From Candidatus Eiseniibacteriota bacterium (GTDB lineage: Bacteria > Eisenbacteria > RBG-16-71-46 > JABDJR01 > JAWXBZ01), in NCBI GenBank assembly GCA_034440375.1, contig JAWXBZ010000196.1, forward strand, positions 1 through 37,498: a stretch of DNA of 37,498 bases, given 5' to 3'. Made by a program: the position numbers and the translations under genes. This document shows positions 20,608-29,886 of this stretch, piece by piece. Below the pieces are notes generated by a model. That model made no database searches. It had not been told where the DNA came from and saw only the letters and a list, made by a program, of their open reading frames with translations. Every line of letters begins with the position of its first letter. Position 1 is the first letter of the stretch.

Positions 20608-23600
20608 ATGACCCGTTCCAGCTTCGTTCACCTTCATAATCACTCGGACTACTCGCTGCTCGACGGCGCGCAGACGATCGACACGATGGTGTCACGCGCG
20701 GTGTCGATGGGCATGCCGGCCCTTGCGTTGACCGACCATGGCAATCTGTTCGGTGCGATCAAGTTTTACGACGCCTGCAAGAAGGCCGGCATCCAGCCGA
20801 TCGTCGGTATCGAGGCGTACGTCACACGCGGAAGCCGGACGGATCGGACCGCCAAGCACGGCCCTCAGAATCCGCTGGACCACCTCGTGCTCCTCGCCCG
20901 GAACGAGGAGGGGTATCGCAATCTCGTCCGGCTCTCGTCGTCGAGCTTCGTGGAGGGGTTCTACTACAAGCCCCGGATCGATCTCGAAATTCTCTCACGC
21001 CACTCGGCGGGACTTCTCGGTATGTCGGCCTGCCTCAACGCCGAAATTCCGAAGCTCCTGCTCGGCGGACGCGACGCCGAGGCTTTTCAGGCGGCGGGCC
21101 GGTTCAACGACCTGTTCGGTCCGGGAAATTTCTACATCGAACTACAAGATCATGACATCCCCGAGGAACAGCGGGTGATGCCGATGCTGGTCGAGCTGGC
21201 CGGCCGGGCCGGCATCCCGCTGGTGGCGACCAATGACTGCCACTACAGCCGGAAGGAGGACGCCGACGCCCACGATGTCCTCGTCTGCATCCAGACCAAC
21301 AAGTCGGTAAATGACACCAACCGACTCAAGTTCACGACATCGGAGCTCTATTTCAAGAGTTCTTTGGAGATGCGGCAGCTCTTCCGTCATCACCCGACCG
21401 CCTGCGATGCGACACTCGACATTACCGAGAAGTGCCGGCTCAAGCTCGAACTGGGCAAGGCTCAGCTGCCGCACTTTCCATGCCCGGACGGCTTCGCCGG
21501 ACTCGACGAGTATCTGAATCATGTCGCCCGCGAGGGGCTCGCGACGCGCTATCCCTCGCCCGGTGACAGCCTGTGGGAACGACTCGAGTTCGAGCTCGGC
21601 GTCATCGGCCAGATGGGGTACGCCGGCTACTTCCTGGTCGTCAAGGACTTCATTGACTATGCCCGAAAGCAGGGCATCCCGGTGGGCCCGGGGCGCGGCT
21701 CGGCGGCCGGAAGCCTGGTGGCCTACTGCCTCGGGATCACCGACATCGATCCGATCCGGTTCAACCTTCTCTTCGAGCGATTCCTCAATCCGGAACGGAT
21801 TTCGATGCCGGATATCGACGTCGATTTCGAGGATGACCGGCGCGACGAGATCATTCAGTACGTGCGCCGGAAGTACGGTGAGGAAAATGTCTGCCAGATC
21901 ATCACGTTCGGAACGATGGCCGCCCGGGGCGCCATCCGTGATGTGGGACGGGCGCTCGGGATGCCGTACGGCGACGTGGATCGTATCGCCAAGCTGGTGC
22001 CGGAGGAACTCGGCATCACCCTCGACAAGGCCATCGGCGCGGCGCCGGAGCTTTTGCAGATGGAAACGGAAGGGGGCGCCCCCGCGCGGCTCCTCAAGAC
22101 GGCGCGTGTCCTGGAAGGGCTCTCGCGCCATGCGTCGACGCACGCGGCCGGGGTCATCATATCGCCACGACGGCTGGACGAAATCGTGCCGCTGTTCAAA
22201 CCAGCCAACAAGGATGAAATCTCCACTCAATATGACATGAACTCGGTGGAGAAGATCGGCCTGGTCAAGATGGACTTCCTGGGCCTGCGAACCCTCAAGG
22301 TGATCGACCGGGCGGTCCGGCTGATCCGCGAGCTGAAGGGCGAGGTGATCGACATCGCCCGCCTGCCCTTCGAGGACCCGATCACGATGGACCTGCTCCG
22401 GGCGGGGCGTGCCATCGGCGTCTTTCAGTTCGAATCGGAGGGGATGCGCAACCTGCTGCGCCGGCTGTCGCCGGAAAACTTCGAGGATTTGATCGCCGTC
22501 TGCGCCCTGTATCGCCCGGGCCCCATGGGCTCCGGCATGGTGGACGATTTCATCGACTGCAAGCAGGGTCGGAAGGAGGTCCGGTACGAGCATCCGGAAC
22601 TTGCGCCGATCCTGGCCGCCACCTACGGCGTGATGGTGTATCAGGAACAGGTGATGCAGATCGCCTCGAGCCTGGCCGGCTACTCGCTGGGACAGGCGGA
22701 CCTGCTTCGCCGGGCCATGGGGAAGAAGAAGGCCGAGGAGATGGCCCAGCAGAAGGCCTCGTTCATCGATGGCGCCACGGCCCGTGGCATCGCGCTCCCG
22801 GTGGCCGGGAAGATCTTCGAACAGATGGCCTACTTCGCCGGCTACGGATTCAACAAGAGCCACTCGGCCGCCTACGCGCTCATTTCGTACCAGACAGCCT
22901 GGCTGAAGGCGCACTATCCGATCGAATTCATGGCCGCCTCGCTCAGTTCCGAAATGGACAAGACCAATCGCATCGTCATCCTGATCGAGGAGTGCCGGAA
23001 GATGGCGATCCCGGTGCTCCCCCCGCTGATCAATCGAAGTCGTTTTGAATTTGTCGTCGAGGAAGGGTCGATTCGATTCGGGCTCGGGGCGGTCAAGAAC
23101 GTCGGGCAGGGAGCCATCGAGGCGATCCTCGCGGCGCGGGACGGCGGGAGTGCCGACCTGGTTGGCGGGGCGGGGCCGTTCGCGAGCCTGCACGAGTTTT
23201 GCCGGCGCGTCGATCTCAAGTCGGTCAACAAGCGGGTCGTCGAGAGTCTCGTCTCGGCCGGCGCCTGCGACGATCTCCCCGGGCATCGGGCCCAGAAACT
23301 GGCCGCCGTGGCCCAGGCCATGGCCGGCGGTCAGGCCGATCAGGATGATCGGCGTGGAAACCAGATCGGCCTCTTTGGCGGCGCCGATCCGCTCGCCCCC
23401 GCACTGGTCATCGATCCGAAACTCGCGGACCACCCGGAGTGGGACCAGCCGACCCGACTCCGGGAGGAAAAGGCCGTGCTTGGTTTTTTCCTGACCGACC
23501 ATCCGCTGGCGCCGTTGCGGGAGGAGATCGCCGCGGTGGCCACCTGCGACAGCCAGACTATCGAGGAGCGGAAGTCCAACCAGGACGTTGATTTCGTCGG

Positions 23601-24213
23601 CGTCGTGTCGGCCGTGGTCCGTCGGCCGACCAAGAGCGGCAACGTGATGGCCTGGATCACGCTGGAGGACTTCGCCGGTTCGGTCGAGTGCATCTGCTTC
23701 AGCGACCTGTACGAGGCCAGCAAGGAAATTCTCGAGGTCGACCAGATCATCCTCGTCCGCGGCCGGGCCGACCGACGGGACGAGGAAGGTGCGGTCAAGA
23801 TCGTGGCGGAAGAACTGTCGCTCTTTGATGAATCCAGGCGACTGGCCCTGCATACACTGCACCTTTCCCTGCCGCTCGCGGGCACCAGCCTTGACGATCT
23901 GGTTCGGGTGCACGACATCCTGACGCGCTATCCGGGCAAGGGCGACGTCATGATTCACTTCGATACGCCGAATGGGCGGGTCAGGATCAAGGTGGGCAAG
24001 TTGCGCGTGGCCGTGTCCGGAGACATGCTCGGCGAACTTCGGGCGCAGCTTGGTTCCGAGCATGTGCGCCTGGGCGAAGCCCGGCCCCGTCCGCGCCCGG
24101 CCGCCGAACCGGCCAACCCCTGGCGCGGGGGGACGCGCCGGGCCGGAAAGCCGCGGGAAATGGTGGTGTCACGTGGCTATCGACCGGCACCAGCAAAGGG
24201 AGGCCGGGCATGA
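20608..24213 (+). CDS. dnaE: DNA polymerase III alpha subunit
   Basis: PHP HLHNHSDYSLLDG, ALTDHG, ATNDCHY; GRGSAAGSLV; catalytic MPDIDVDF and KMDFLGL; YGFNKSH; C-terminal OB fold. No intein seen. Confidence 0.98.
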   Translation: MTRSSFVHLHNHSDYSLLDGAQTIDTMVSRAVSMGMPALALTDHGNLFGAIKFYDACKKAGIQPIVGIEAYVTRGSRTDRTAKHGPQNPLDHLVLLARNEEGYRNLVRLSSSSFVEGFYYKPRIDLEILSRHSAGLLGMSACLNAEIPKLLLGGRDAEAFQAAGRFNDLFGPGNFYIELQDHDIPEEQRVMPMLVELAGRAGIPLVATNDCHYSRKEDADAHDVLVCIQTNKSVNDTNRLKFTTSELYFKSSLEMRQLFRHHPTACDATLDITEKCRLKLELGKAQLPHFPCPDGFAGLDEYLNHVAREGLATRYPSPGDSLWERLEFELGVIGQMGYAGYFLVVKDFIDYARKQGIPVGPGRGSAAGSLVAYCLGITDIDPIRFNLLFERFLNPERISMPDIDVDFEDDRRDEIIQYVRRKYGEENVCQIITFGTMAARGAIRDVGRALGMPYGDVDRIAKLVPEELGITLDKAIGAAPELLQMETEGGAPARLLKTARVLEGLSRHASTHAAGVIISPRRLDEIVPLFKPANKDEISTQYDMNSVEKIGLVKMDFLGLRTLKVIDRAVRLIRELKGEVIDIARLPFEDPITMDLLRAGRAIGVFQFESEGMRNLLRRLSPENFEDLIAVCALYRPGPMGSGMVDDFIDCKQGRKEVRYEHPELAPILAATYGVMVYQEQVMQIASSLAGYSLGQADLLRRAMGKKKAEEMAQQKASFIDGATARGIALPVAGKIFEQMAYFAGYGFNKSHSAAYALISYQTAWLKAHYPIEFMAASLSSEMDKTNRIVILIEECRKMAIPVLPPLINRSRFEFVVEEGSIRFGLGAVKNVGQGAIEAILAARDGGSADLVGGAGPFASLHEFCRRVDLKSVNKRVVESLVSAGACDDLPGHRAQKLAAVAQAMAGGQADQDDRRGNQIGLFGGADPLAPALVIDPKLADHPEWDQPTRLREEKAVLGFFLTDHPLAPLREEIAAVATCDSQTIEERKSNQDVDFVGVVSAVVRRPTKSGNVMAWITLEDFAGSVECICFSDLYEASKEILEVDQIILVRGRADRRDEEGAVKIVAEELSLFDESRRLALHTLHLSLPLAGTSLDDLVRVHDILTRYPGKGDVMIHFDTPNGRVRIKVGKLRVAVSGDMLGELRAQLGSEHVRLGEARPRPRPAAEPANPWRGGTRRAGKPREMVVSRGYRPAPAKGGRA

Positions 24214-25199
24214 GCACACCCGGTTGGCTGGAATTCGAGAAACCGATTGTCGAACTCGAAGCCAGGATCGAGGAATTGCGACAACTGAACAGCAATGGCC
24301 GTGTCGAGGTGGCCGAGGAAATCGAGAGCCTGGAGCGGAAGGCGGAACGCCTCCAGCAGGAAATCTATTCCAACCTGAACCGCTGGCAACGGGTGCAGTT
24401 GGCCCGCCATCCTCGCCGCCCCTATGCGCTCGACTACATCGACGGGCTCTCCTCGGAGTTCACCGAACTCCATGGCGATCGGCTCTTCGGTGACGACCGG
24501 GCCATCGTCGGCGGATTTGGCTTTCTGGATGACCGCCCGACCATGTTCATCGGTCACCAGAAGGGGCGCAACACCAAGGACAACATCCTTCGCAATTTCG
24601 GCATGCCTCATCCCGAGGGGTATCGGAAGGCCCTGCGCCTGATGGACCTGGCCGGGCGCTTCGGCGCGCCGATCGTGACCCTGGTCGACACGCCCGGGGC
24701 CTATCCCGGTGTCGGGGCGGAGGAGCGCGGCCAGTCCGAGGCGATCGCCCGAAACCTGCGCGACATGGCCCGCATTCCGGTCCCGATCGTCACGGTCGTG
24801 ATCGGTGAGGGGGGGTCGGGGGGGGCGCTGGCCATTGCCGTGGCCGATGTCATCCTCATGATGGAGAACTCGATCTACTCGGTCATCTCGCCGGAGGGGT
24901 GTGCGGCCATCCTGTGGGGCGATCGCACCCGGGCGCCGGAGGCGGCCGAGGCGCTCAAGCTGACCGCCACCGACCTGGGTGCGCTTGGAATCATCGACGA
25001 CATCGTGCCCGAACCGATCGGTGGCGCGCACCGCGATCCGCCCGTCGCCGTGGCCACTCTCAAGACCCATGTGGCGGCCCGGCTTGAATCGCTTCGGGCC
25101 ACGCCGGTCGATCGGCTGCTCAAGGATCGCCTGGCCAAGTACCGGAGGATGGGGTCATTCCAGACAAAGGGTTTGACACGCCCGGGTGACACTGGTTAG
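24210..25199 (+). CDS. accA: Acetyl-CoA carboxylase carboxyltransferase alpha subunit
   Basis: LEFEKPI, ARHPRRPY, ELHGDR, RNFGMPHPEGYRKALR, DTPGAYPG, GEGGSGGALA, YSVISPEGCAAILW; ATGA overlap with dnaE. Confidence 0.98.
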   Translation: MSTPGWLEFEKPIVELEARIEELRQLNSNGRVEVAEEIESLERKAERLQQEIYSNLNRWQRVQLARHPRRPYALDYIDGLSSEFTELHGDRLFGDDRAIVGGFGFLDDRPTMFIGHQKGRNTKDNILRNFGMPHPEGYRKALRLMDLAGRFGAPIVTLVDTPGAYPGVGAEERGQSEAIARNLRDMARIPVPIVTVVIGEGGSGGALAIAVADVILMMENSIYSVISPEGCAAILWGDRTRAPEAAEALKLTATDLGALGIIDDIVPEPIGGAHRDPPVAVATLKTHVAARLESLRATPVDRLLKDRLAKYRRMGSFQTKGLTRPGDTG

Positions 25200-25202
25200 C
25201 CT
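25173..25202 (+). promoter_or_regulatory. sigma70 promoter embedded in the accA 3' end
   Basis: Consensus TTGACA (25173-25178), 18 bp, TAGCCT (25197-25202); predicted start ~25209-25210 coincides with the 5' end of a long stem. Confidence 0.6.
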
Positions 25203-25209
25203 CATCACC

Positions 25210-25409
25210 GTCGGGGCTCCATTGTGTCGCCCCGCGCCGACCTGGAAAGACCTGCCCCACAGGAGCCTTCACCTATCGCATCTGGCTAAGGGTCACTGCC
25301 TGAACGGAAAGACCGGCGCCATTCCCGGAAGCTCAGGTGTGCCAACCGCGACCCATGACCAGCGCGACCACACTCTCTACGTCCGGAGGGGTGGCCTCGG
25401 CGTCCCGAC
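25210..25409 (+). ncRNA. Candidate ~200-nt structured non-coding RNA (6S-like rod or unknown motif)
   Basis: Manual pairing: GTCGGGGC 25210-17/GTCCCGAC 25402-09; GTCGCCCC 25226-33/GGGGTGGC 25388-95; TCGC 25276-79/GCGA 25364-67; CTGG 25282-85/CCAG 25359-62; GGGTC 25290-94/GACCC 25350-54; CCTGA 25299-303/TCAGG 25333-37; CCGG 25313-16/CCGG 25325-28. Directly downstream of a promoter; no credible ORF. Confidence 0.5.
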
Positions 25410-25438
25410 TGTCACCATCAGCAAGGAGACGATGACCC

Positions 25439-25609
25439 ATGCCAAGCAAGGAATTGCTGGAGCTCCTGGCCTGCACGGCCTGCAAGGGGCCCCTCGATTA
25501 CCGTGAGTCGGAGCAGAAACTGATCTGCAGGAAGTGTGGCCTGTCCTACCGGATCGAGGACGATATTCCCAACATGCTTCTCGACGAGGCGGAAAAGACC
25601 ACAGGTTGA
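25439..25609 (+). CDS. Trm112-like (UPF0434/YcaR) small zinc-binding protein, 56 aa
   Basis: Own translation (below ORF track cutoff): MPSKELLELLACTACKGPLDYRESEQKLICRKCGLSYRIEDDIPNMLLDEAEKTTG; AAGGAG upstream. Confidence 0.93.
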   Translation: MPSKELLELLACTACKGPLDYRESEQKLICRKCGLSYRIEDDIPNMLLDEAEKTTG

Positions 25610-28600
25610 TGATGCACCGGAACGACGGTCCGCGCCCCCCGGTGGCCATTGGTGCGGGGATGTTTCACGCTTTGTGGCGCCGTGGCCTGGCCGCGACGTT
25701 CGGGACGCCGCTTCTCCTGATCGTCGGGTTGCACCTCGCAATCGCTGATGCGGTCGCCCGTCCCGACGACATGATTCGGGAAACCCCCGCCTCCGCCACC
25801 GGCGTGTCGTTCCGCTATATACCACCGACTCCCCGAATCCTCGACTTCGAGGGGGGCAAACCGAATCAGCGCACGATCGTCGTGGCCGATGCGGGCCTGA
25901 CCGGTGCCCTGCCGGACGACTGGATTTTGCCGGTTCACACGGCGCAGATTCTCGTCCCAGCGGGCCATGACTGGTCGCTCGATTTCCGAACGGTGTCCGG
26001 TTCGCGTATCGAGGATGTCTCCTTTGCGCGCGTGCCGACCGGTGGTCGTGCCGCGGAACGCGGTGCCGACAGCCCGCGATCGATTACCCTGGACGGCGTT
26101 TTTCCGGAATCACCGGTCACGGGATCGCTCGAGATCTACCGGGGTCGGACGCTCCTCCTCCTGACGCTGGCGCCGGTGCAGTTCGATCCCATCGACGGTA
26201 CGGCTACCACCTTCGAGTCGATCGAGGTCGATGTCCGATTCCATCGGCGCGCCGACGCCCCTGGCCGCGCCGTCCGGCCCTTCCCCACGGAATCGGCCGG
26301 GGATGATTTCTGGAAGGACCTGATACTGAACCCGGAGGCCCTGTCGGCCGACACCGGGGGCCCTCCATTGCGCTCCGAGCTGGTGGCTGCGGGAGCAGCC
26401 GGCTCGGGACGTCCGGATACCTATTTCGATGACGCGCCGATCTGGCTCAAGGTGGGGGTTAACGCGAACGGCATTTACCGCATCAACGCCGCGACCGTGA
26501 CGGCGGCTGGTGTGGACGCCCGCACCATCGATCCGGCCACGATCCGGATATTCGCCAATCCGGGGCCGGAACTGGATGAAGCCACGCACGAAGCCGATGT
26601 GCCGGCCTGGGGTGAGCGGGGTGGATTCCGCGAGCTGGCCATTCATGTCAGGGAGGGCGGTGCGTCGAACAGAACCTTCGAGGATGTGGACACGCTCCTC
26701 TTCTACGGACTGGCCATTGACAATTTCGGCAACACCTTCGATCCGGCCGGGAGCGCGGAATGGCTTGAGAATGAACACACCGGGACGAACGTCTACTGGA
26801 TGACCTGGGGAGGCAGTTTCCCGGCCGCGCCGCTGCGCATGGCCACCCTTCCGGGCGGCGCGCAAGGCGAGCCGGTCAACACCGTCCTCGAGCGAAGCCA
26901 CGTCGAGATCAACGACCCCGCCCTGTACGACCCGTTACCTCGTGAGCGGGGCGTCCGATGGGAAAAATGGTGGTGGCAGCGGATCGAGGACTCGGGCGCC
27001 AGCTATTTCTGGGACATCCCGCTTCCCGACATCGACACGACCCGGACGCTTTCCATGACGATCCGGTGGTGGGGTTCAAACACGCCGGCCTGGAGCGCAC
27101 AGGAACCAACGCAGCGCCATTTTCTCCGCGTGTCGGTCAACGACCAGCCGGAGATTGCAGCCACCTGGGGAGGCTTCCTCCAGGGGATCAGCCGGTACGA
27201 CATGGCGATTGCCGACCTGCCCGCCCGGACGACGAATCGTGTGATCGCCACGGTTACCGAGTTCGCGGGCGCCTCGTTGCGGATCGACCAGATACTCCTC
27301 GGCTGGATGGAGCTGGACTGGTGGCGGCGTCTCAGCCTCTCGGGTCAGCACCTGGCCTTCCGCGGGACGAGCGCGGCACCCGGACCGGTCACCTTTGAGG
27401 TGGCCGGCAGCGAGGGGGGTGCGCGGGTACTCGACGTCACCTCGCCCTGGGCGCCGGCGTTCGTCCCCGCCGGACGATTGGTGATTTCGGGCGTGGCCAC
27501 GCTGGCCTTCAACGTCGACGACCCTACCGGCCGCCGCTATGCCCTGGCCAATCCGGCGGGTATTCAGACGCCAATTTCCATTCAGCGGGACACGTTGCCG
27601 CAACGATGGCTGCGCGATGTCGACATGAGTGCCGACTATATCGTCATCACCGCGGATGAATTCGAGGGGAGCGCCGGCGACCTGGCCACCTGGCGCCGCA
27701 CACACCTCCGCGGCATCGCCAGCGACATGCCGGTCGGCCAGACGCCGCGCGATGCACGAACCGCCGTCGTGCGGGTGTCCGATATCTATGATGAATTTTC
27801 CGGTGGTCGACCCGACGTCGCGGCCATCCGAAATTTTCTGAAGTACGCCTGGCTCAACTGGGGATCCAGCCTGCCGGAGGATCGCCTGCGGTACGTCTGC
27901 CTCCTCGGAGATGCCAACCGTGATACCCGCGACCGCGAAGGGACCGGCGTCAGGAACCTGGTGCCGACCTGGGAAGGGGGCTATGACACGGCCACGATAC
28001 TTGATTCCAACCCGGCCTACGCCAGCGACGACTTCTTCGGCCGCTTTGACGGACCGGCCGACCGGATCACCGACCTGGCCATCGGTCGCATTCCGGTGGT
28101 CGACCCGGAGATCGCGGAGGATCTGATCCGGCGGAAGATCGTGGGCGTCGAGTCGTTCGACGGGTTCAATCCGAAACGGAATCGGGCCATCCTGGTGGCC
28201 GATGATGTCTGTCAGGCGGGGCGATCGGACCCGCTCGGCGTGACCCATATTCTGCAGACGGAGACCATCGATCGATACATCCCGAAGCAGTTTGACCGGT
28301 TGAAGATCTATCTCTATGACTACGGCCAGAATGACTGCTCACTCCTCTCCCGGCCGGGGGCCAAGCGCGACCTGATCCAGGCGATGAACGAGGGGGCCTG
28401 GCTGGTCAATTACATCGGTCACGGTGGCGACCAGGTCCTGGCCGACGAAAAGGTGCTGGAAACAACAGACGTCCCCTCGCTGACAAATCTTGAGGATCTG
28501 TCGGTGCTGGTGGCCGCCTCGTGCAGCGTCGGCAAGTTCAATCGTGCCGGGAGCGACGGGCTGGCCGAGGCCCTGGTCAAGTGGCCCAATGGTGGATGTC

Positions 28601-29886
28601 TGGGCGCGATCGCCGCCACGCACCTTTCCTTCTCGGGCGAGAATGAAGACCTGAATCGCCGCATTTTGCAGTTCCTGTTCCCGGGGGGGGACAACCGCAG
28701 CGTAACCCTTGGAACGGCGCTGCTGAAGGCCAAGATCGCCCAGACAATGACCACCAACTTCTGCTCCCCGACCGGCGATCTCGAGCCATGCGATCGACCG
28801 AAAAAGTATCTGCTCTTCGGCGATCCGGCGGCCGTGATCGTGGGCCCCAACGGCCAGATCCGGATAACCGAAGCACCGGATACACTGGATCGCGGTACGC
28901 TCGTCACGGTGCGCGGCGAAGTGATGCGCCCTGACTCGACCCGTGACGAGAGCTACCAGGGGATGATCGACCTCCTGGTCGAGGACCAACCGGACACGCG
29001 GCGGGCATTCGGTCAATCGGGCGCCGGCATCGGGGCTCCGTATGCCATCCCGGGCGCCACCATTTACAGTGGCCGGGCCGCCGTGACGGCCGGACTGTTT
29101 GAAGCCACGTTCGTCGTCCCGGTGTCGCTGCGCGGCGGGCCGAGGGGGCGGGTGCGTGCCTATGCGGCCGGCGGGGGGAGTGAAGCTGTCGGCGCCATCT
29201 CACCGCTCGCGATCGGCGGACTCGACGCCGATGCGCCGGGCGACACGACCGCTCCCAGCATCGTCATCAACGTCCCCGGCGGAACCATGGCGGCGGGGCA
29301 GGTCCTGACGATCAATATCGAGGATGACAACGGCATCAACCTGACCCGGCTTTTTGAATTTCGCTCGATCATCCTGACGTTCCTGGACGACACGGAACTG
29401 GAGCGATTCCGGGCCGACGTGACCGACGACTTCCAGTACGAAACCGGAAGTTACCGCCGCGGCATCGTTCAAACCCGCGTGCCAAACCTTCCAGGGGGGG
29501 CATACACGGTCCGCCTGACGGCCACCGACAACTTCAACAACCGCGGTGAGGCACGGCTGGCCGTCACGATCGGCACGACCGGTGGAGCCGGGGACTTGAC
29601 CGACCTTCTGGCGCTGCCCAATCCCTTCCAGGAATCGACCGAGATCACCTTCCTTCTGGCGGGAGCATCGCCCTCGGTGCGGGTGCTCGTCTATTCCGTC
29701 AGCGGCCGAAAGGTCCGGGAGTGGAACGTCGTTGGCCAGGTTGGGGAGAACCGGCTGGCGTGGGATGGCCGCGACGCGACAGGCGATGCCGTGGCCAACG
29801 GGGTTTACCTGATCAAGGTGGCCGCCCGACCCGCCGCCGGTGGCGACGAGATCGACTTGATCGAGCCAATCGTCCGCCTGCGATAG
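25609..29886 (+). CDS. porU: PorU-like C25 (gingipain family) sortase/transpeptidase with C-terminal T9SS-A/FlgD-Ig-like domain
   Basis: WLKVGVNANGIYRI, LLFYG, NVYWMTW, DYIVIT, IYDEFSGG.PD..AIRNFL, LLGD, SDDFFG, AIGRIP, catalytic NYIGHGG and AASCSVGKF, LFGDPA, DTTAPSI, ATDNFNN, CTD PNPF...YSVSGRKVR...WDGRD...NGVYL. Upstream of porV. Start 25609 (TGATG overlap) or 25660. Confidence 0.85.
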   Translation: MMHRNDGPRPPVAIGAGMFHALWRRGLAATFGTPLLLIVGLHLAIADAVARPDDMIRETPASATGVSFRYIPPTPRILDFEGGKPNQRTIVVADAGLTGALPDDWILPVHTAQILVPAGHDWSLDFRTVSGSRIEDVSFARVPTGGRAAERGADSPRSITLDGVFPESPVTGSLEIYRGRTLLLLTLAPVQFDPIDGTATTFESIEVDVRFHRRADAPGRAVRPFPTESAGDDFWKDLILNPEALSADTGGPPLRSELVAAGAAGSGRPDTYFDDAPIWLKVGVNANGIYRINAATVTAAGVDARTIDPATIRIFANPGPELDEATHEADVPAWGERGGFRELAIHVREGGASNRTFEDVDTLLFYGLAIDNFGNTFDPAGSAEWLENEHTGTNVYWMTWGGSFPAAPLRMATLPGGAQGEPVNTVLERSHVEINDPALYDPLPRERGVRWEKWWWQRIEDSGASYFWDIPLPDIDTTRTLSMTIRWWGSNTPAWSAQEPTQRHFLRVSVNDQPEIAATWGGFLQGISRYDMAIADLPARTTNRVIATVTEFAGASLRIDQILLGWMELDWWRRLSLSGQHLAFRGTSAAPGPVTFEVAGSEGGARVLDVTSPWAPAFVPAGRLVISGVATLAFNVDDPTGRRYALANPAGIQTPISIQRDTLPQRWLRDVDMSADYIVITADEFEGSAGDLATWRRTHLRGIASDMPVGQTPRDARTAVVRVSDIYDEFSGGRPDVAAIRNFLKYAWLNWGSSLPEDRLRYVCLLGDANRDTRDREGTGVRNLVPTWEGGYDTATILDSNPAYASDDFFGRFDGPADRITDLAIGRIPVVDPEIAEDLIRRKIVGVESFDGFNPKRNRAILVADDVCQAGRSDPLGVTHILQTETIDRYIPKQFDRLKIYLYDYGQNDCSLLSRPGAKRDLIQAMNEGAWLVNYIGHGGDQVLADEKVLETTDVPSLTNLEDLSVLVAASCSVGKFNRAGSDGLAEALVKWPNGGCLGAIAATHLSFSGENEDLNRRILQFLFPGGDNRSVTLGTALLKAKIAQTMTTNFCSPTGDLEPCDRPKKYLLFGDPAAVIVGPNGQIRITEAPDTLDRGTLVTVRGEVMRPDSTRDESYQGMIDLLVEDQPDTRRAFGQSGAGIGAPYAIPGATIYSGRAAVTAGLFEATFVVPVSLRGGPRGRVRAYAAGGGSEAVGAISPLAIGGLDADAPGDTTAPSIVINVPGGTMAAGQVLTINIEDDNGINLTRLFEFRSIILTFLDDTELERFRADVTDDFQYETGSYRRGIVQTRVPNLPGGAYTVRLTATDNFNNRGEARLAVTIGTTGGAGDLTDLLALPNPFQESTEITFLLAGASPSVRVLVYSVSGRKVREWNVVGQVGENRLAWDGRDATGDAVANGVYLIKVAARPAAGGDEIDLIEPIVRLR

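Follow-up and report, generated by a model that had tools for sequence, protein, structure and literature searches.

An internal sigma-70-type promoter pattern and a lineage-specific candidate cis-regulatory motif in the spacer between accA and a Trm112/PorU-like operon of a Candidatus Eiseniibacteriota bacterium

Four described systems come closest to the locus analyzed here: internal sigma-70-type promoters with a long 5' leader, leaders that sequester or mimic a Shine-Dalgarno (SD) sequence (e.g. riboswitch expression platforms and RNA thermometers), Rho-dependent attenuators with rut-like sequence, and 6S RNA (RF00013). The locus is the 239-nt spacer (25200-25438, + strand) that separates accA from the gene of a Trm112-like protein in a 37,498-nt stretch of contig JAWXBZ010000196.1 from Candidatus Eiseniibacteriota bacterium, hereafter called the window. 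A first-pass annotation had placed here a promoter-coupled, rod-like RNA of about 200 nt, to be seen either as a divergent 6S RNA or as an undescribed structured leader of the porU operon. In our analysis the interval is probably a regulatory spacer, with an internal promoter, a leader of about 230 nt and one lineage-specific candidate cis-regulatory motif.

Each of the known systems shares something with this locus and departs from it elsewhere. As in internal sigma-70-type promoters with a long 5' leader, there is a perfect -35 box, a -10 box of the form TAnnnT and an 18-nt spacer, all in the last codons of accA and facing the next operon; here, however, the -10 box shows unusual conservation (six of nine loci have TAGCCT) and doubles as one arm of an inverted repeat, and the start is a predicted one. 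The analogy with SD-sequestering leaders lies in an AGGAG that pairs with an anti-SD-like arm in 26/28 cells, in a small hairpin far ahead of the real SD, but no ligand-binding or sensor domain can be recognised, there is no Rfam family and the real SD is about 150 nt away. The resemblance to Rho-dependent attenuators consists of a C-rich leader whose fold is no more stable than that of shuffled sequence; it is a likeness of composition, and it is weaker in the leader of the nearest relative and in more distant ones. Lastly, 6S RNA is matched in length (about 200 nt) and in a minimum free energy (MFE) structure that shows nested helices together with a bubble inside, whereas a match to its model, a fold signal and conservation are all absent.

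The promoter pattern is formed by a -35 box TTGACA (25173..25178) and a -10 box TAGCCT (25197..25202), both on the + strand. The whole of TTGACA-N18-TAGCCT spans 25173-25202, with a spacing inside the 17 +/- 1 nt of the sigma-70 type, and the stop codon of accA, TAG (25197-25199), forms the beginning of the -10 box. A built-in promoter scan overlooked this site because it demands four of six matches in the -10 hexamer. Across the window's own genome (G000, 3.96 Mb), the pattern TTGACA-N16-19-TANNNT was found 59 times in intergenic and 16 times in intragenic positions, and the reversed control pattern 6 and 18 times, respectively; these counts use crude gene calls, namely long open reading frames (ORFs) with high third-position GC. 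The pattern is enriched about ten-fold between genes. The optimum of the spacer is sharp, with 27 sites at 17 nt, 24 at 18 nt and 2-6 at 15, 16, 19 and 20 nt, and the -10 boxes mostly read TAGnnT, TACnnT or TAAnnT, so that their third position is often G, C or A. From the enrichment and the spacer peak we infer that this lineage uses classical sigma-70-type promoters, which the box in accA fits. Thereby the near-consensus promoter of the first-pass annotation is not only present but strengthened, by the genome-wide pattern as well as by relatives. For a poorly sampled lineage, available as metagenome assemblies only, this is a clean example of a promoter pattern, and TTGACA-N17/18-TAnnnT can help its annotation.

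Among 30 accA loci (the one in the window and 29 of relatives), paired boxes 17-18 nt apart, the second of the form TA[GA]NCT, were found just after accA in nine, from four families. The -35 box is TTGACA in the window, in G025 and in G001, the sole other genome of the same family that was compared (its accA is 73% identical to that of the window), and TTGACC in G002, G003, G004, G005, G007 and G057. Besides the six copies of TAGCCT, the -10 boxes are TAGGCT, TAACCT and TAGACT. The sequences between the boxes are unrelated among the nine loci, and the C-terminal tails of accA are not homologous. The codon phase of TTGACA differs between the window and G001, and in two genomes the pair of boxes is shifted as a unit past the accA stop, by 87 nt in G002 and by 23 nt in G003. 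Therefore, protein coding does not explain the conservation. Altogether, the sigma-70-type pattern at the 3' end of accA is real and conserved, and the site would be expected to act as a promoter. Transcription is predicted to start at about 25208-25211, which would leave the Trm112/PorU-like operon with a 5' leader of about 230 nt (feature 25203..25438, + strand). As a side observation, in locus L035 of G002 the accA stop is separated from TTGACC by about 90 nt that are very rich in GC and contain GCCGGCGGCCGG repeatedly.

The second conserved feature is a block within this leader (25260..25297, + strand), composed of an SD-like AGGAG (25261-65), a pyrimidine arm CACCT (25270-74) and a GGCTAA box (25285-90). 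The spacers of the window and G001 are about 44% identical, and their 3' 140 nt cannot be aligned up to the SD of Trm112, AAGGAGA (25424..25430, + strand), which is kept in G001 too. Two ungapped blocks stand out in this comparison: 28/38 positions are identical at the promoter and 30/38 at 25255-25292, both above the shuffle maximum of 25/38 (0/500 shuffles reach 30/38). Homologues of the block exist in five genomes of f2, the sister family, and the core of the block consists of AGGAG, (A/C)C, a pyrimidine arm (CACCU, CUUCU or UCCUC), a few bases and (A/U)GGCUA(A/G). When a covariance model of the block, R1, was run on 151 genomes of the class, scores of 30.0-44.1 bits (E <= 1e-3) were obtained in G000, G001, G002, G003, G004, G005 and G007 only, i.e. 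in seven of the ten genomes of the order, and the next best score was 23.5 bits. In all seven genomes the block is in sense orientation between accA and the PorU-like gene. Conserved elements are confined to the first 95 nt or so of the leader. To judge by this conservation, the block is under selection in this order.

The block is also non-coding, as far as its reading frames tell. The frame across it differs between the window and G001, the shared frame lacks ATG, GTG and TTG, and every frame of the minus strand is interrupted by stops. The region was also read as an extension of accA by read-through, as a mini-ORF with an ATC start and as an upstream ORF of 26 codons (25355-25435); all of these small-ORF readings were rejected because frame or start codon is not conserved. 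Likewise, readings of the conserved block as a sigma-54, an extracytoplasmic function (ECF)-type or an antisense promoter were discarded, with wrong spacing or absent boxes relative to the consensus sequences.

No second credible copy of the block was found in G000, neither by nhmmer nor by two-box pattern searches for a regulon. A strict block pattern (at most 3 mismatches) matched 2/206 genomes of the class, and nhmmer with the family block matched the window genome and G001 only. BLASTN of the spacer against 60 relatives returned noise, except for two collinear short matches in G001, and pattern scans of loci L063-L224 showed the motif or the promoter only in the loci of the window (L144) and G001 (L143). 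Genome G054 has an accA match only, without a match to the block pattern; it may also belong to the 151 genomes searched with R1, but none of the individual conclusions depends on it. Closer relatives were sought by an accA scan of metagenomes, with a best identity of 66%, and by a scan of genome contigs, which yielded mostly distant bacteria, chiefly Proteobacteria; the above pattern scans cover all of these loci. In eight homologous loci, Rfam at E up to 1 gave a single match, to an unrelated small nucleolar RNA model inside the accA of G001. Four DNA runs yielded only short contigs for this stretch; one of 87 nt, from a sediment metagenome (run X5), overlaps 25256-25338, and hence the block, with 9 differences. 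It represents a diverged relative that might contribute a further sequence to the comparison.

In the small hairpin between AGGA(G) and the pyrimidine arm, 26/28 cells pair, compared to 43-64% when the partner is slid; changes in it comprise one compensatory replacement of A-U by C-G (in G003) and two of G-C by G-U. According to the explanation that we propose, the sigma-70-type promoter in the last codons of accA would give the Trm112/PorU-like operon its own start. The resulting leader of about 230 nt is C-rich and G-poor, with a fold that random sequence equals. It would carry, at about +50 to +90, a module in which the SD-like AGGAG is held in a hairpin of 4-5 bp by the anti-SD-like pyrimidine arm, followed by the GGCUA(A/G) box. 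The module would then act in cis in the leader RNA, tuning translation or stability of the downstream operon. We put forward tentatively that the module acts at the RNA level, as a cis element of the leader in which an SD-like sequence is sequestered. An order-specific leader motif precedes a PorU-like type IX secretion peptidase in these bacteria; if it is regulatory, it offers a handle on the control of secretion-system maturation. We know of no described leader-level control of PorU-like genes outside Bacteroidota, and the parts of the literature that were accessible on accA-Trm112 intergenic regions and on porU/type IX starts or untranslated regions held nothing relevant.

Regarding composition, the C/G ratio of the 239 nt at 25200-25438 is 1.37, a value at the 99.5th percentile among tiles of this length in the window, and the neighbouring genes have ratios of 0.88-0.99. 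The leader of G001 has a ratio of 1.21, and the more distant leaders of G025, G057 and G018 are near 1.0-1.1. In composition and in its weak structure, which is slightly below that of shuffles, the leader resembles a Rho-loading region. The 26-codon upstream ORF mentioned above starts with ATG in the frame of Trm112, ends one codon before the Trm112 ATG and has no SD; in G001 an ATG at a similar place runs in frame into Trm112. Since the peptides are unrelated between both genomes, this ORF is probably due to chance.

A second set of pairings involves the -10 box itself. Firstly, the box forms part of an inverted repeat (25198..25218, + strand), in which AGCCTC (25198-203) faces GGGGCT (25213-218) over 6 bp (P = 0.016 in a contiguous-stem test against shuffles). 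By the same test, this -10-anchored hairpin reaches 9 bp in G004 and G007 (P <= 0.005) and 8 bp in G005 (P = 0.009), whereas G001, G002, G003, G025 and G057 show no significant one. Secondly, the reverse complement of the -10 box and its 5' neighbour corresponds to the distal GGCUA(A/G) box, and 43/49 cells pair, against 3-30 with the partner slid. In this distal pairing, three f2 genomes have C-G where family f1 has U-A, and G002 has G-U in place of G-C. Each of the four genomes of genus g3 has two complementary distal sites (P = 0.003-0.016). When the region bounded by the -10 box and the distal box is folded, z is -2.2 in G004 and -2.3 in G007, without significance in the remaining five genomes.

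Several observations weigh against the reading as a regulatory spacer with a promoter, a leader and a cis-acting motif. Both the start site and the activity of the promoter are deduced from sequence. The shuffle control of the AGGAG hairpin is weak, as 61/500 shuffles do as well, and the block comparison consists of seven sequences from four genera, three of them close kin. In 8/29 loci of relatives accA and Trm112 are only 3-31 nt apart and presumably co-transcribed, so that an internal promoter is not needed everywhere. The single distal site of the window is not significant (P = 0.29). Moreover, with a predicted start about 7 nt past the -10 box, the transcript lacks the 5' arm of both -10-box pairings; therefore these pairings, if real, concern accA read-through RNA or DNA.

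Action at the DNA level, where a repressor of the promoter would have its operators in the inverted repeat over the -10 box and start site and in the distal GGCTA(A/G) box, appears rather unlikely to us. In its favour, the -10 box itself serves as the 5' arm of the repeat and precedes the predicted start, the arms measure 8-9 bp in G004, G005 and G007, and the -10 and distal boxes are reverse complements of each other; arm differences that are transitions only suit a degenerate site as well as they suit G-U pairs. However, these two boxes are 49 to 80 nt apart, a variable distance without helical phasing, the arms of G005 are as DNA only 5/8 true complements, the block at +50 to +90 is far for an operator, and the genome has no second copy of the site.

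The hairpin at or after the accA stop could also be a 3' end element of the dnaE-accA transcript, i.e. a terminator without U-tract or a stabiliser, that overlaps the next promoter, the rest of the spacer being neutral. Terminator hairpins without U-tract occur in high-GC bacteria, and the hairpin here indeed begins at or shortly past the stop. We nevertheless consider this unlikely, as in G002 the hairpin is found about 110 nt beyond the stop and moves with TTGACC rather than with accA, and as the conserved block at 25260-25297 is left unexplained.

A discrete small RNA of about 90-100 nt, made from the promoter with the conserved block as its core and ending before Trm112, would agree with a block that is unique and under selection and with conservation that ceases about 95 nt past the predicted start. 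Against it, the absence of a U-tract terminator, already noticed in the first-pass annotation, was borne out, with 0 terminator-like sites in 24800-25800. The fold of 25205-25300 has z = +0.50, Rfam has no match, and the block always stands in sense just upstream of the PorU-like operon (7/7 genomes). We regard such an RNA as quite improbable.

Similarly doubtful in our view is a riboregulator, specific to the order, in roughly the 95 nt that follow the accA stop. Its key strand (C/U)UAGCCU, the sequence of the -10 box itself, is present only in accA read-through RNA and would pair either with the distal AGGCUA(G/A) box of the conserved block or with the proximal arm. If true, read-through transcripts of the upstream operon would differ in fold, and in expression of the PorU-like type IX secretion peptidase, from those of the internal promoter, which would amount to an alternative leader fold that depends on the promoter.

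The individual elements of the rod can indeed be found. The 8-bp terminal stem GUCGGGGC (25210-17) with GUCCCGAC (25402-09) and the nested helices are part of the MFE fold, the 9-mer GGAAAGACC occurs at 25244 and again at 25306, and the octamers GGGGCTCC (25213-20) and GGAGCCTT (25262-69) of the alternative stem are complementary. CTAAG (25286-90) and CATG (25354-57) are present as proposed, but the 11-nt tetraloop receptor, CCUAAG opposite UAUGG with a GAAA tetraloop as partner, is not, given that the window has GCUAAG (25285-90) and CAUGA (25354-58) and that neither GGAAAG is a closed GAAA tetraloop. Furthermore, CUAAG lies inside the conserved block and CAUG is not aligned between the window and G001.

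Folding energies were compared with those of dinucleotide shuffles. The whole spacer has an MFE of -83.5 kcal/mol, compared to -83.8 +/- 5.3 kcal/mol in shuffles (z = +0.06; 106/200 as good). In the case of the rod interval (25209-25415), the values are -75.9 and -75.9 +/- 4.3 kcal/mol (z = -0.01; 97/200 as good). The minus strand of the spacer has z = -0.60, and tiles of 60 and 100 nt on the + strand range from -0.58 to +1.60, mostly positive. An exact repeat of at least 9 nt was present in 259/2000 shuffles, and a contiguous stem of at least 8 bp between both end segments in 293/2000. The spacer of G001 (242 nt) folds differently (z = +0.21), and 26/56 pairs of the rod can be formed in it, compared to 21.2 +/- 3.5 for random letters. 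The consensus fold of window and G001 reaches only -22 kcal/mol, the long-range rod being wholly lost.

The rod is thus a chance fold of GC-rich RNA. The caveat of the first-pass annotation that high GC inflates chance pairing was well placed, as shuffled sequence of the same composition matches the rod fold; a start-aligned stem, a repeated 9-mer and motif look-alikes are likewise the output of shuffled 64% GC sequence. Because shuffles yield an equal rod, we advise against recording the interval as a new 6S-like RNA. Of the proposed porU-operon leader there remain the promoter and, in outline, the leader of about 230 nt, both of an ordinary kind apart from the order-specific motif, and not the 200-nt structured rod, for which neither conservation nor covariation was detected.

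The 6S reading was rejected because a canonical 6S lies on another contig and because Rfam has no match here. With the Rfam 15 covariance models, the whole window gave 0 matches at the gathering score; in 25000-25650 there was only noise (E above 4) and no match to RF00013 at E up to 10. The canonical 6S (RF00013) of this genome is at G000:C180:3200-3385 on the - strand (locus L061), with 53 bits against a cut-off of 46.4. A promoter upstream of that gene, as a calibrator of start distance, was looked for and none was found. A second 6S-like match remains below threshold (30.4 bits; G000:C85:37792-37914, + strand). A divergent 6S or other rod-like RNA of about 200 nt at 25210-25410 is therefore extremely improbable: its size fits and its nested-helix MFE fold begins at the predicted start, but the fold equals that of shuffles, hardly more pairs than random can form in G001, the 3' half cannot be aligned within the family, and the genome has its 6S elsewhere.

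Concerning the gene context, dnaE, accA and the genes of the Trm112-like protein and the PorU-like C25 peptidase are all on the + strand. The ORF table assigns 24210..25199 to accA (acetyl-CoA carboxylase carboxyltransferase alpha; Pfam ACCA, E = 6.8e-146). The Trm112-like small zinc-ribbon protein (25439..25609; Pfam Trm112p, E = 7e-15) is followed by the PorU-like peptidase (25612..29886; 1424 aa; Pfam Peptidase_C25, E = 6e-73), which has a C-terminal FlgD_ig domain (E = 2.7e-9). The accA-Trm112 spacer is present in one copy in the genome. In the 29 loci of relatives, Trm112 directly follows accA in 16, with spacers of 3 to 264 nt, and lies 1.3 kb from accA in one further locus; a PorU-like homologue is downstream of accA in 21. 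The string of accA, optional Trm112 and PorU-like C25 peptidase is class-wide, and ties a gene of lipid synthesis, accA, to a type IX secretion peptidase. In the sister family f2 Trm112 is absent from this position, and accA and the promoter are retained, as is the PorU-like gene behind a leader of about 250-330 nt; the leader consequently belongs to the PorU-like operon and not to Trm112 as such. On the other side of accA, the stop of dnaE (20608-24213, + strand) overlaps the accA start (ATGA, 24210-24213). This pair is therefore tightly coupled, as is likewise the case for dnaE and accA of Escherichia coli.

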